IMG/VR virus record: IMGVR_UViG_3300021426_000089
Span: 4,126-68,125 of that record
DNA: 64,000 nucleotides
Strand: one strand, 5' to 3'
Origin: a virus
Lineage: Duplodnaviria; Caudoviricetes
Shown: piece by piece, positions 6,349 to 63,968 of the stretch
Position numbering within the stretch: the stretch's first letter is position 1
Layout of the letters: each line of letters begins with the position of its first letter
The notes under the pieces: model-generated
Databases searched by the model: none
Told to the model about the DNA's origin: nothing
Seen by the model: the letters and a program-made list of their open reading frames with translations, nothing else
Position numbers and translations under genes: made by a program

Positions 6349-6421
6349 GCCTCGGTAGCTTAATTGGTAGAGCACCAGATTTTTGATCTGGGGGTTCAGG
6401 GTTCGACTCCCTGCCGTGGCA
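6349..6421 (+). tRNA. tRNA-Lys(TTT), no encoded CCA
   Basis: Cloverleaf: GCCTCGG/CCGTGGC acceptor (one T-T mismatch), CCAGA-TTTTTGA-TCTGG anticodon arm, CAGGG-TTCGACT-CCCTG T arm. Confidence 0.8.
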
Positions 6422-6440
6422 CAAATAAAAGTTTTGCCTT

Positions 6441-25391: not shown

Positions 25392-25739
25392 CTATGCGTT
25401 ATCCAGTTCCAGTACTACGGCAGTGGCCACCTCCTTTGCCGTGGCCCGCCACTCCTGAAACTTCTCGAACTCACGGGCGTGAGCCTCTGTGTCGGAGCCG
25501 TTGGCAAGGATGGCTTCAACGGCATCGGCAGAATACTTGTCACGGACAATGGCCGACACGATGCTGCCGTAGTCAATGCTTTTCACATCAACGTTTTCGC
25601 AGGTCAGGACCTCAACCGTCCCGCCTTCCATTTCCTTCTCCTCCAACGCAAAATCGAAGAAGATGCGGGTGATAACACCCTCACGCAGGACTTCCAGTTC
25701 AGGAACGTCGCCGCCAAGATAGTCACGATATACTTTCAT
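25392..25739 (-). CDS. Conserved protein downstream of the DGR RT
   Basis: YGSIVSAIVRDKYSADAVEAILAN...FQEWRATAK. Confidence 0.65.
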   Translation of the reverse strand: MKVYRDYLGGDVPELEVLREGVITRIFFDFALEEKEMEGGTVEVLTCENVDVKSIDYGSIVSAIVRDKYSADAVEAILANGSDTEAHAREFEKFQEWRATAKEVATAVVLELDNA

Positions 25740-25751
25740 AATGATAAAGGT

Positions 25752-26399
25752 TTATAAGTCAACAAATTGGTAGGAAGTCTTTCCGCTGCCGAGGTCTTTT
25801 CGCTTGATGGCCACTCCCGATACCGGGAAAATCTCTTTGCCCTGCGACTCCAGATCCGAGCACTGGTCCAGCACATCCTTTATGCTATGAGAGTTGGTGA
25901 TGAATTTCACCTTCTCCCCACTGTGCTTCAACTCCACCAAGACCACGTACCTATCGTTGTTCTTCTTCGCGTGGTCCTTGATGTCGGTCGTGTCAATATT
26001 GCTTTGGAAGTCAAGAACCGTCAACTCCGTATTGATGATGTCCGAAAGCTGAACCTGACGCACGTCAAAGAACTTCTTCCCGTCCTTCAACGTGCCTCTT
26101 ACCGTCTTGATTCCTTTGTCTGCAAATCCCATATCTTTTCCTGTTACTTTCTTCCAGAGGTGGCGGCATCTGCCATACATACACCAGCCTCTATAACTAT
26201 CGTCTATTTCTCTTATTCGTCTCCGGCTCTTTACCCGCTGCCGGGACGCTATAAACCGCTTCTTGATGCTTTTTCGCAGCCTCATATTCTCGCGACTGAA
26301 CTCATACCCGAGAAAGTCAATGCTGCGACCTATGTCCTCTCTGCCTCCACCTTTTCTTCTTTTTCTTTCCATAGTGGCGTAACGGTGCGTAAAAACCAC
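25752..26399 (-). CDS. DGR RT segment 3 (IDFLGY motif 7 + thumb) fused to a ~125-aa extra domain
   Basis: SIDFLGYEF, RGWCMYGRCRHLWKKV, then MGFADKG... in the same frame with no stop; internal ATG at 26372. Confidence 0.85.
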   Translation of the reverse strand: MVFTHRYATMERKRRKGGGREDIGRSIDFLGYEFSRENMRLRKSIKKRFIASRQRVKSRRRIREIDDSYRGWCMYGRCRHLWKKVTGKDMGFADKGIKTVRGTLKDGKKFFDVRQVQLSDIINTELTVLDFQSNIDTTDIKDHAKKNNDRYVVLVELKHSGEKVKFITNSHSIKDVLDQCSDLESQGKEIFPVSGVAIKRKDLGSGKTSYQFVDL

Positions 26400-26628
26400 T
26401 TGACTTTACAACCAAGCCCCTCGCCTCCGCCAATTCATCGTACTTATTCAGAAGGAAACGGGCCTCGGCCTTACTCCGGGACAACATCACCATATCATCG
26501 CAGTTGCGATGCAGCTTGGCGTGATACTTCTCCGTGAGGATGTGGTCAATCTCATTGTGGTTGAGGTTTCCGATCATCCCGCTTATGTAAGCGCCAATTC
26601 GTACACCTCTCCTTCTTTGCTCTTTCAT
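26317..26628 (-). CDS. DGR RT segment 2 (motifs 4-6, NCDD)
   Basis: GVRIGAYISGMIGNL and HRNCDDMVML. Confidence 0.85.
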   Translation of the reverse strand: MKEQRRRGVRIGAYISGMIGNLNHNEIDHILTEKYHAKLHRNCDDMVMLSRSKAEARFLLNKYDELAEARGLVVKSSGFYAPLRHYGKKKKKRWRQRGHRSQH

Positions 26629-27205
26629 CTGCTAAAGCCTGTTCAATTTCATCACCGCTGTCGTAATCCAGTACGCAAATCTTCATCAGTGTTATGAACT
26701 TCTCGTCCTTGAACTTGTGCCGAAGCGCTCGCTCCAAATACTCCGGGCTGATGCTCTGGTAATATTTTTTGCAGTCGCTTTGGGAGAACCAGTTGTAGTG
26801 CGGGTTGCGACGAAGAATCCGCTTCACGCGCTTTACTCCATACAAACAACCTCTACCCTTGATGCAGCAAGAAGTATCTGCAATCAGCGTCTTGTTCACT
26901 ATCGGCTCTATCACCTGCACTATGGCGTGGCTCATAATCTTCCACGGCATATAATCCTCATCATCCAAGTCCCGAATCTTGCCCTTGTCAGCCTTCCGTT
27001 TCAGCTTCCGGCTGTGATGGGGCGGGAACTCCAGCGACAGAATCATCTTCTGCAGATTATCTATCTGATTCTCGGCATCTGCATTAAAGTCGCGGATCTG
27101 CTTGCTGCGTTTGGCCTTTCCTCCTCGCTGGGATTTCTTCACCGCCCGCCTCAAATTGTCCTTATCCGCAATCTGCTCCAGTATGTAACCTACTTTCTTC
27201 GTCAT
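26552..27205 (-). CDS. DGR RT segment 1 (motifs 0-3)
   Basis: NLRRAVKKSQRGGK, GKIRDL, HAIVQVIEP, IKGRG, SDCKKYYQSI. Confidence 0.9.
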   Translation of the reverse strand: MTKKVGYILEQIADKDNLRRAVKKSQRGGKAKRSKQIRDFNADAENQIDNLQKMILSLEFPPHHSRKLKRKADKGKIRDLDDEDYMPWKIMSHAIVQVIEPIVNKTLIADTSCCIKGRGCLYGVKRVKRILRRNPHYNWFSQSDCKKYYQSISPEYLERALRHKFKDEKFITLMKICVLDYDSGDEIEQALADERAKKERCTNWRLHKRDDRKPQPQ

Positions 27206-27505
27206 ACATCTTGTTACTTAATTCACTGCAGGAAGTCCTGCATATATGAATCCGCCCGAAGCGTTGGACCCCTGCCCGGCCTTCCTCACGGCGGCAGAAA
27301 CAAAGTGCCGCACACTGGAGTCTATGCCATTAGCAGGACCTACATTAGCCTCGCTTACTCACCCCTACAACTGGGTGGCCTTTCCGCATTCGATATGTTT
27401 TGACAACGCCATCACCGCATTTCTGCCCGATGGGGTCAAGGTTGAGGGGACTCGCTGCCCGGTATTTATCCGGGAGAACGAAACAGGGTTTCTTTCACAT
27501 TGTAT

Positions 27506-27613
27506 GACGCGCCCCGATGTTCGAGTTCGTGTTCGACCAAGCGTTGTTCGAGTTAGCGTAGAACGGACCCGAGTTCGCCCCGTTATTCGAGTTACCACCG
27601 ACCAACAGGACCT
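27506..27613 (-). repeat. DGR template repeat (TR), 108 bp
   Basis: 98/108 identical to the VR; 10 AAY codons in the VR-equivalent frame. Confidence 0.97.
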
Positions 27614-27742
27614 CAAACACCGACACTAATGTCCCCTCCCACCTACCACGACCTGCTACCCGACCTTCGGCGTAGTGGTGCGGCTCCGGGCCGCCTTCGC
27701 AGCCTCGGCCCGCACCATCGTGGATTCGATGCCGTAGAGCCA

Positions 27743-27767
27743 AGTCCTGAACCCAAGTTCAAGGACT
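27743..27767 (-). other. Hairpin/cruciform downstream of target gene (candidate DGR target-recognition element)
   Basis: AGTCCT(T)GAAC-TTGG-GTTCAGGACT: 10-bp stem, one bulge, 4-nt loop. Confidence 0.5.
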
Positions 27768-27792
27768 GACGTTCATATTTCAAAGAACTGTA

Positions 27793-29109
27793 CTACAAGT
27801 CGCGACCGTCAACGAACTGGACTTGGCCGTAATACGCAGGACGCGCCCCGATGATCGAGGTCGTGGGCGACCAAGCGTTGCCCGAGTCAGCGTAGAACGG
27901 ACCCGAGTACGCCCCGAAATTCGAGTTACCACCGACCAACAGGACCTGTCCCGTATTGTTGCCATAGTAGTAGTCACTCCAAGCGTAGTTGCTACCTCCG
28001 TTCAGAGTCTTGGCAAAGATGTCAAAGTCAGCACCTTTGAGCATTGCGCGGACGTAGCCACTGGTCGTCTGGCGTACCAGCTGGCGGAACTTACCGCTCG
28101 GGTGCGAGGCCAGTTCGGAAGAAGAAGGCATCCTGTTACCTTCGTAGAGGAAGATTTCTGTTCCGTCCTGATCGTTGTTCGCGGAATTGCCGAAGAAGCA
28201 GCCCTGAATGAACTCCCACTGCGCATTCCAGAAGTCCTCGACACCAAGCACAGAAACGTGGCAGGAATCGGCCTGTGCATCGGCATCGGAGATAGCGACG
28301 CTACCAGTGGCATCGCCCAGTCCCTTCGTCTTGCCCGTGAGTTTGAGGACGGCGCTGGCCAGAGTCTTGTCCCAAGCAACACCAGCGCTTCCGCCGACAC
28401 CCTGACCGATGCTGGCCTGAATGTTGGCATTGCCGTTGCTTTCGCAGAGGCACATCATCGCGATCCACTTCCAAACATTGACATTTGTCAGGCCCCAGTT
28501 TGCGCCGAAGCTCTGGGCCGCATTCCAGTAGCCGTTGATGCTCTTGGAACTGGTGTCGAAGTTGACATCACTCCGGCTCACCAGCTTGCCGCCGGAGATA
28601 GAGCCTTTGTATGCGCCAACGACAATGTACTGGTTGTTTCCGGCGTTGGCCAGATAGTGCTCGCTGATCGGCTGCTGGCTCAACCACAGGTACGGAATGC
28701 TGGTCTCTGCGTCCAGCAGGTACAGGAAATAGAGCCGAGGACCGATAACGACAACGCTGCCCCGGCTTTCGTCAAGGACAGTACCATCAGCGAAGATGGC
28801 GGAGTTGTTGGGATGCAGCTTCGCGGCACGGCCATTGGCATCCATCAGGTAGCGGCCCACCTGCGCTTTGTAGGCGGCATAGGCCGACAGGTTGCCAACC
28901 ATTCCCCACGCCGGGTTGGTCTGGAGCTCATCCTTGATAGGGATGCCCCACGCCACCTCGTGCAGGAGTTCGGTCTGGCCCTCGTTGATTGATTCAAGGA
29001 ACTCCTCAACAGTGATGCGGCGGACACTGCCACCGGCCTCAACGATTACGGAGTTCGATTTGGTTAGCGAATGAACTTGCGTCGCAGAACCAAGATTCTT
29101 ATTTGCCAT
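27793..29109 (-). CDS. DGR target: virion/tail-associated protein with C-terminal CLec-type variable domain
   Basis: C-terminal VLLVGG...IGAR VR; located in the tail-tip block. Confidence 0.9.
   Translation of the reverse strand: MANKNLGSATQVHSLTKSNSVIVEAGGSVRRITVEEFLESINEGQTELLHEVAWGIPIKDELQTNPAWGMVGNLSAYAAYKAQVGRYLMDANGRAAKLHPNNSAIFADGTVLDESRGSVVVIGPRLYFLYLLDAETSIPYLWLSQQPISEHYLANAGNNQYIVVGAYKGSISGGKLVSRSDVNFDTSSKSINGYWNAAQSFGANWGLTNVNVWKWIAMMCLCESNGNANIQASIGQGVGGSAGVAWDKTLASAVLKLTGKTKGLGDATGSVAISDADAQADSCHVSVLGVEDFWNAQWEFIQGCFFGNSANNDQDGTEIFLYEGNRMPSSSELASHPSGKFRQLVRQTTSGYVRAMLKGADFDIFAKTLNGGSNYAWSDYYYGNNTGQVLLVGGNSNFGAYSGPFYADSGNAWSPTTSIIGARPAYYGQVQFVDGRDL
27840..27947 (-). repeat. DGR variable repeat (VR), 108 bp
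   Basis: All 10 differences from the TR are at TR adenines; 7 Asn codons changed to F,Y,D,G,P,T,I. Confidence 0.97.
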
Positions 29110-62641: not shown

Positions 62642-62684
62642 CAATCGGCCAGAATAACGTGAACCGTTAATCCAGCCGATTTAG

Positions 62685-62756
62685 TAGCGGGAGAAGGAAT
62701 CGAACCTCCGGCCTCCGGGTTATGGGCCCGACGAGCTACCGCTGCTCTACCCCGCA
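62685..62756 (-). tRNA. Initiator tRNA-fMet(CAT), no encoded CCA
   Basis: Unpaired 1:72, three G-C pairs in the anticodon stem (GGG/CCC), loop CCCATAA; upstream promoter TTTG-N20-TACCTTTG. Confidence 0.88.
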
Positions 62757-63891: not shown

Positions 63892-63968
63892 TGGTGACTC
63901 CAACAGGACTCAAACCTGTAACCTTTTGATCCGTAGTCAAATGCTCTATTCAATTGAGCTATGGAGCC
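63892..63968 (-). tRNA. tRNA-Arg(ACG) with encoded CCA (possible host gene / att site)
   Basis: Canonical cloverleaf GGCTCCA...TGGAGTC-A-CCA, loop CTACGGA. Confidence 0.92.

Follow-up and report, generated by a model that had tools for sequence, protein, structure and literature searches.

A diversity-generating retroelement with its reverse transcriptase in three frames

We analysed a 64,000-nucleotide (nt) window that makes up most of a 68-kb viral contig of IMG/VR (record IMGVR_UViG_3300021426_000089) and that carries, on its minus strand, a diversity-generating retroelement (DGR) whose reverse transcriptase (RT) is spread over three overlapping open reading frames (ORFs). The elements follow one another in the order target gene with the variable repeat (VR), template repeat (TR) and the three RT ORFs. 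The target gene (27793–29109, minus strand) encodes a tail protein of 438 amino acids (aa; PHROG 5302 'tail protein', E 2.8e-35), and its 3' end is the VR (27840–27947, minus strand), which covers the last ~50 codons. The TR (27506–27613, minus strand), rich in AAC codons, lies ~230 nt downstream of the VR, which is a 108-nt direct repeat of it with 91% identity, and the RT starts ~300 nt beyond the TR.

All 10 mismatches between TR and VR in the window fall at TR adenines, in keeping with the adenine-specific changes reported in a preliminary description of this DNA, which was made from the sequence alone. The DGR is active, and its adenine-specific VR variation is ongoing. When VR diversity was compared across metagenomic runs, as the preliminary description had proposed, the VR differed at 23 listed positions between runs whose phages are ~99.8% identical across the RT; 22 of these 23 positions lie opposite TR adenines, and adenine makes up only 22% of the TR. 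The locus thus has the marks of a DGR, with TR/VR differences confined to TR adenines and a VR at the 3' end of its target, beside the TR and the RT. The RT itself is of the DGR clade: its best solved match is bRT (8ub7) of Bordetella phage BPP-1, and PHROG 1423 (RT) matches colinearly over the three ORFs.

The RT domains are divided among the ORFs in their usual order. ORF1 (26552–27205, minus strand; frame 1; 217 aa) holds an N-terminal extension, the fingers and motifs 1–3. ORF2 (26317–26628, minus strand; frame 2; 103 aa) holds motif B (RGVRIGAYISG), motif C (NCDD), motif D and a basic C-terminal tail, and ORF3 (25752–26372, minus strand; frame 3; ~206 residues) consists of a disordered head, the G-R-x-IDFLGY primer grip, the thumb, a linker and an extra C-terminal domain. 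The frame offsets are +1 and +1 and the overlaps 77 nt and 56 nt, as first described; an alternative ORF3 start, the GTG at 26399, would lengthen the second overlap to 83 nt. Profile matches run colinearly through the pieces, with positions 20–103 of Pfam RVT_1 in ORF1 and 116–185 in ORF2, and positions 95–270, 283–355 and 362–522 of PHROG 1423 in ORF1, ORF2 and ORF3, respectively. The thumb in ORF3 aligns and superposes with residues 251–328 of bRT 8ub7. The two breaks, before motif B and before motif E, lie in surface loops, and unsplit relatives (P0022, P0031 and P0034; 475–489 aa) have ordinary linker loops at both sites, without the basic tail. The conserved part of ORF1 ends near 26606 (..DERAKKER), and its last ~17 codons form an unconstrained, out-of-frame tail. 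Public data also contain 18 clusters of stand-alone ORF2-like proteins.

The layout is conserved, with each piece under purifying selection

The three-frame layout is real, old, conserved and part of a working DGR. In three independent DNA studies, of bovine, sheep and another gut sample, Logan contigs run through the RT with 0 gaps and differ from it by 4–6 substitutions. Contigs from an RNA library (run X15) span 26595–27713 and 25919–26130 and show no indels at junction 1; junction 2 is outside their coverage, and they cannot prove transcription. Relatives were drawn from IMG/VR, GTDB genomes and metagenomes by protein search, a megablast of the locus against phage records having given no match. 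The +1/+1 arrangement is kept in 133 of 158 related loci, and the remaining ~25 are mostly low-coverage human-gut contigs with further scattered 1–2-nt indels or deletions. Complete loci fall into 15 lineages (<80% aa identity), to which representatives of 50%-identity clusters add 4. These 4, including a GC-rich one at 33% identity, show +1/+1 too, and the layout is retained in 19 lineages down to 33–40% identity.

The ratio of nonsynonymous to synonymous substitution rates (dN/dS) indicates purifying selection on each RT piece in its own frame. Against L003, which aligns to the window gene without a gap, dN/dS is 0.09 for ORF1 codons 1–196, 0.10 for ORF2 and 0.09 for ORF3, each in its own frame, and in the ORF1 tail it is 1.4 in frame 1 and ~0 in frame 2. 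ORF3 values against L077 and L100 are invalid, as indels near junction 2 break the gap-free register. The out-of-frame tail of ORF1 ranges from 9 to 94 aa among relatives.

The further lesions in ~25 of the 158 loci are what could be expected if the RT were a decaying pseudogene or an assembly or sequencing artefact, with the VR differences as relics. We consider this extremely improbable, given the identical, gap-free frame layout in contigs from three independent studies, its persistence in 19 lineages, a dN/dS of ~0.1 for every piece and a VR that is hypervariable at TR adenines between near-identical phages. The preliminary dismissal of decay and sequencing error therefore holds, as do the frame integrity and the conservation of both shifts that it had asked to be checked in sequence data and in homologs.

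Among the loci that depart from the common layout are L108, L058 and L060. In L108 (378–1211), a relative at ~63% identity on a contig of 2.2x coverage, the G4 run of junction 1 has lost 1 nt, which joins ORF1 and ORF2 (..KKAGVRIG..); four close relatives of L108 carry the extra G, and the fusion may have arisen in assembly or may be a natural variant. L058 and L060 (IMG/VR, ~44% identity) are without the ORF2 catalytic palm piece, ORF1 being followed directly by ORF3, and their RT is probably the dead remnant of a deletion.

Selection acts on both internal ATG codons

ORF2 and ORF3 each open with an ATG that lies inside the preceding ORF, and codon comparisons across lineages show both ATGs to be under selection. 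The ORF3 ATG (26370–26372, minus strand) precedes both IDFLGY, by 17 codons, and the basic motif encoded in frame 2. It is present in all 19 lineages, 10–20 codons upstream of the only stretch in which a shift would be possible. The frame-2 codon over it is AAT, TAT, CAT or GAT, never the synonymous NAC, and the encoded residue may be N, Y, H or D, differing even within lineages. Because the AT and the following G are kept while the frame-2 amino acid varies, it is the ATG itself that is selected and not the frame-2 residue. NAT holds at this position even where it accounts for only 21–30% of a lineage's NAY codons. The product of the lineage NAT frequencies is ~5e-7, a figure that flatters the case, as the lineages are related and their independence is thereby overstated; the direction is nonetheless clear. 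The ORF2 ATG (26626–26628, minus strand) precedes the conserved Arg-Gly of motif B by 6 codons in the window and is found in 17 of the 19 lineages, 4–7 codons before that Arg-Gly, and the frame-1 codon over it is always NAT (GAT, AAT or CAT).

Protein-level selection also shows frame 2 to be translated well past the ORF3 ATG, to 10–20 codons beyond it. The basic motif at the ORF2 C-terminus, R-W-R-Q-R-G in the window (26335–26352, minus strand) and R-K-R-Q-R-G/S in the family consensus, is conserved as protein in frame 2 in 15 lineages, with 5–6 different Arg codons per position, and in frame 3 this stretch encodes unrelated, unconserved peptides. Frame 3 is conserved from G-R-x-I-D-F-L-G-Y on, where changes that are synonymous in frame 3 alter the frame-2 amino acids. 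The gap between the frame-2 motif and the frame-3 G-R is only −2 to 13 nt.

The junctions share no frameshift site

Benler et al. (2021, Microbiome 9:78; PMC8008677) described the RT of Quimbyvirus/LoVEphage in three overlapping ORFs, showed adenine-specific VR variation, and suggested that two programmed frameshifts yield the active RT. The multi-frame DGR RTs of Bacteroidales gut phages mentioned in the preliminary description are thus a matter of record; the layout is not new, and the window adds a ruminant-gut member to a kind already published. Our literature search found no paper addressing the mechanism of a three-frame RT.

If two programmed +1 ribosomal frameshifts joined the frames into a ~480-aa RT, the purine-rich AGG junctions would serve as pause or shift sites. 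Both shifts are indeed +1 in all lineages, and purines abound at the junctions, where the incoming frame often contains AGG. However, a shift site is common neither to the lineages nor to the two junctions, and the P-site and A-site codons that a shift would require differ between lineages. We found no shared slippery or hungry-codon site in the junction-2 stretch of −2 to 13 nt, and no shared shift site in the 6–12-codon window of junction 1; in four lineages the remaining shift window reads CGN-GGG-N, on which tRNA-Gly could slip. Known programmed +1 sites, such as prfB CUU-UGA-C, Ty1 CUU-AGG-C and Ty3 GCG-AGU-U, are short, precisely conserved heptamers. The RT junctions resemble them in that the frame changes inside an essential gene and in that AGG codons are frequent there, yet what the RT junctions conserve is a start codon, with no heptamer kept across lineages or junctions.

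Nor does RNA structure supply a common signal. No conserved structure was found downstream of either junction, with z-scores scattering around 0, and a junction-2 hairpin in the window (z −2.6, −2.2), considered as a stimulatory structure, is lost even in the closest relative. The tails of ORF1 and ORF2 past the junctions are unconstrained and variable, as would be expected of stretches that few ribosomes reach; there are unsplit relatives of comparable total length; and in the low-coverage contig L108 the 1-nt deletion brings junction 1 into frame. All this would suit double frameshifting, but frameshifting leaves the selection on both ATGs unexplained, especially that on the ORF3 ATG, 10–20 codons upstream of the shift window. 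Moreover, there would be no precedent for two efficient +1 shifts in a single gene, and with inefficient ones very little enzyme would be made. We therefore regard double frameshifting as unlikely, though worth keeping in view; if true, it would be an unusual case of recoding in Bacteroidales, in which mechanisms driven by Shine-Dalgarno sequences are weak.

Three further ways of joining the frames were considered and dismissed. If AGGT were decoded as a quadruplet, both junctions would be bridged, but ORF3 would be broken at codon 418, where another AGGT stands in frame, and the idea is further weakened by the tRNAs of the window, which are ordinary Lys, Met and Arg species only. Transcriptional slippage, or homopolymer error, would call for a conserved homopolymer, and the shift windows have none; in LoVEphage contigs, the indel variants come from assemblies of low coverage and are spread among several short runs. 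A shift of the RF2 type would use the frame-2 stop, which reads NAT-TGA-C on the codons for Ile-Asp; it fails because this stop is absent from ~8 of 19 lineages and because the frame-3 G-R upstream of it, conserved with synonymous variation, shows that frame 3 is already being read there.

The preliminary description had further singled out a 25-mer repeated at the head of each downstream frame (26628–26604 and 26372–26348, minus strand) and containing an AGGTG likened to a Shine-Dalgarno sequence. The two copies are indeed 18/25 identical, and 13/15 over the last 15 nt, and only 0.1% of 22-mers in this RT gene match as well. As a functional signal, however, the repeat does not survive comparison. 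In other lineages the two junctions agree at 9–14 of 25 positions, as many as chance would give in purine-rich sequence. Only the lineage of the window has AGGTG at both junctions, and elsewhere there is none at junction 2. The junction-1 AGGTG corresponds to the Arg-Gly-Val codons of RT motif B. Furthermore, AGGTG lies ~20 nt downstream of each ATG and so is no Shine-Dalgarno sequence for that ATG. Of what was expected from an alignment of homologous loci, the shifts are conserved and the junction motif is not.

A probable make-up of the reverse transcriptase from three separately started pieces

We consider it probable, from the conservation pattern, that the RT is made as three separately initiated polypeptides, each downstream piece starting at its own ATG inside the preceding ORF. 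This model is favoured because the ATGs are selected, the ORF2 tail is conserved past the ORF3 ATG and no shift site is shared; the ORF3 ATG in particular has no role under frameshifting and is explained by a start codon. As in a split enzyme, a start codon under selection heads each downstream piece, NAT being retained against codon bias. Of the two mechanisms offered in the preliminary description, a three-subunit RT made by reinitiation and double +1 recoding, the comparative data lend more support to the former and less to the latter.

In the proposed scheme, the ORF1 piece (~200 useful residues) would contribute the N-terminal part, the fingers and motifs 1–3; the ORF2 piece (~100 residues) would bring motifs B–D with the catalytic aspartates and the basic RKRQRG tail; and the ORF3 piece (~206 residues) would add the primer grip, the thumb and the extra, possibly OB-like (oligonucleotide/oligosaccharide-binding) domain. 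Bound to one another non-covalently, the three would assemble into one right-hand polymerase, which would copy TR RNA with adenine-specific errors into the VR of the tail protein. We lean, by a little, towards the fuller proposition of a natural heterotrimeric RT, in which fingers, catalytic palm and primer-grip/thumb are each initiated as a polypeptide, the basic tails (..ERKKR and ..RKRQRG) aid assembly or template-RNA binding, hypermutation depends on assembly, and the arrangement has long persisted in phages of Bacteroidales from the guts of humans, mice and ruminants. A complex prediction of the three pieces scores 0.84, and a control retaining ORF1 scores 0.84 likewise.

Several points weigh against three separate pieces. 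The use of the internal ATGs as start codons is an inference from their conservation. Two lineages (L059/L062), and a sub-lineage close to the window (L097–99), are without the ORF2 ATG; the lineages concerned keep an in-frame TTG at −24 or GTG at −48, with the frame open. Every ORF1 molecule would carry a useless, unconstrained tail of 9–94 aa, a burden that would matter less if most ribosomes left frame 1. Every lineage has +1/+1, and none has separated, non-overlapping genes; recoding would fit this too, although it is probably due to common ancestry together with the constraint of the overlaps. Finally, we know of no heterotrimeric split RT that has been shown biochemically.

Separate pieces and fusions might also coexist, with the pieces as the main form and rare frameshifted fusions beside them, or the reverse, giving two forms of the enzyme. 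Such a mixed mode has nothing direct in its favour; it is compatible with the ATG conservation and with the tolerated long out-of-frame tails, but it is a less economical reading, and none of the features calls for it. We hold it to be quite improbable.

Enzymes split naturally between separate genes are known, among them a split archaeal family-B DNA polymerase and a split reverse gyrase. As would be the case here, an enzyme of a single fold is broken at surface loops and its pieces reassemble; the present case differs in its three pieces, in their origin from overlapping ORFs and in that the enzyme is a reverse transcriptase. To our knowledge, a three-piece RT from overlapping ORFs has no biochemical precedent. 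If it is made of three subunits, this RT would be the first split, multi-subunit RT and would point to compact, separable RT modules for engineering. A regulatory benefit, for example through dosage or through assembly-limited mutagenesis, would then be conceivable.

The extra C-terminal domain and the absence of Avd

The C-terminal domain of ORF3 (residues 103–206; 25755–26066, minus strand) is modelled by AlphaFold with a pLDDT (predicted local distance difference test) of ~75–80 as beta-beta-beta-alpha-beta-beta, possibly an OB or single-stranded DNA-binding protein (SSB)-like fold. Its matches to such proteins are weak but repeated: PRD1 SSB P12 (Z 5.5, 90 residues aligned), Rim1 (Z 4.9), PrgE (Foldseek E 0.035) and Teb1. 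A Foldseek search with ORF3 returned nothing at E <= 0.001. The domain also matches PHROG 19665, a family of unknown function, and is carried by the fused ~480-aa relatives as well.

The accessory protein Avd was sought in the 68-kb phage record, where PF05635 has no match, and between TR and RT, where there is no helical ORF. DGRs that lack Avd are known, and its absence does not disqualify the locus as a DGR; a divergent accessory protein is conceivable. As no Avd was found in the phage, the C-terminal domain of ORF3 might itself fill an accessory role.

The closest solved RT by sequence is the bRT of the BPP-1 bRT–Avd complexes (8ub7–8ube; E 4e-7 for the ORF2 profile), which is also the closest in fold to the ORF3 thumb (Z 5.4). 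In both systems, TR/VR adenine mutagenesis is directed at a receptor-binding protein of the tail-fibre type. The BPP-1 bRT, however, is one 328-aa chain that works with an Avd pentamer, whereas the window RT lies in three ORFs, with no Avd found, and has an additional N-terminal part as well as the C-terminal, possibly OB-like domain.

Relatives and hosts

The nearest published systems are Quimbyvirus and LoVEphage ('Quimbyviridae'; see also Van Espen et al. 2021, PMC8525569), temperate phages of ~70 kb with Bacteroidales hosts, like the phage of the window; a 2025 paper treats LoVEphage as a phage discovered in 2021 studies (PMC12629997). Their RT is broken at the same two places, one ORF per frame, with junction positions in the LoVEphage loci (L017–L039) the same as in the window, and they share the ~480-aa RT family with its extra C-terminal domain, the VR in a tail protein and the adenine-specific variation. 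RT identity to Quimbyvirus/LoVEphage is 49–51% at the aa level over all three pieces, and ORF1 is 49% identical to the GenBank records of LoVEphage and of two phages from culture, Bacteroides phage BI-TP1 (PQ571265) and Phocaeicola phage PV4-TP1, in all three of which the RT pieces are annotated as separate coding sequences. The cultured lysogens (BI-TP1 in Bacteroides intestinalis BG4 and PV4-TP1 in Phocaeicola vulgatus BM8) make the mechanism directly testable.

There are also differences. Quimbyvirus has two VRs, whereas we found no second VR within the window. The LoVEphage clade has YCDD in the catalytic box and IGxxxSQ in motif 4 (IGAFTSQ), whereas the window has NCDD and IGxxxSG (IGAYISG). 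The motif-4 signature [LIV]GxxxSQ is a common hallmark of DGR RTs and not a functional definition. The S-G of the window is treated here as a variant of this hallmark, and no ground for exclusion from the DGRs, because adenine-specific mutagenesis is seen all the same. The two substitutions run through the clade of the window: NCDD (26480–26500, minus strand) against YCDD in other clades, L176 also having NCDD, and IGxxxSG (26570–26600, minus strand) against IGxxxSQ elsewhere, with VR variation still cleanly adenine-specific.

In the RT tree, the window groups with phages from the guts of ruminants and other animals in a deep split clade that is distinct from that of LoVEphage. Both split clades lie, together with fused ~480-aa relatives (P0022, P0031 and others), in one clade, starred in the tree (SH-aLRT 99), and a single origin of the split is not rejected (approximately unbiased test, p 0.28). 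The nearest prophage, at 86% identity, lies in a metagenome-assembled genome of Candidatus Cryptobacteroides, and other hosts of related loci are Bacteroides, Phocaeicola and Muribaculaceae. The phage, a rumen phage of Bacteroidales, corresponds in ruminants to the human-gut LoVEphage. Among temperate phages of the human gut, the LoVEphage/Quimbyvirus relatives rank with the most prevalent, and their DGR is thought to drive changes of host range; the present data show that these phages also occur in ruminants. Near-identical copies of the locus (25700–28000) are present in bovine, sheep and goat gut metagenomes (runs X1–X14, ~10 studies).

Neighbouring genes

Directly downstream of the RT lies an acidic ORF of 115 aa (25392–25739, minus strand) with no Pfam or PHROG match. 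Its position is conserved in the relatives L002 and L003 and in the LoVEphage-type BI-TP1 record, and it could be a DGR accessory gene or merely the next phage gene. The window also carries three phage tRNA genes, for Lys-TTT (6349–6422), Met-CAT (62684–62756) and Arg-ACG (63892–63968), whose anticodon loops are ordinary.

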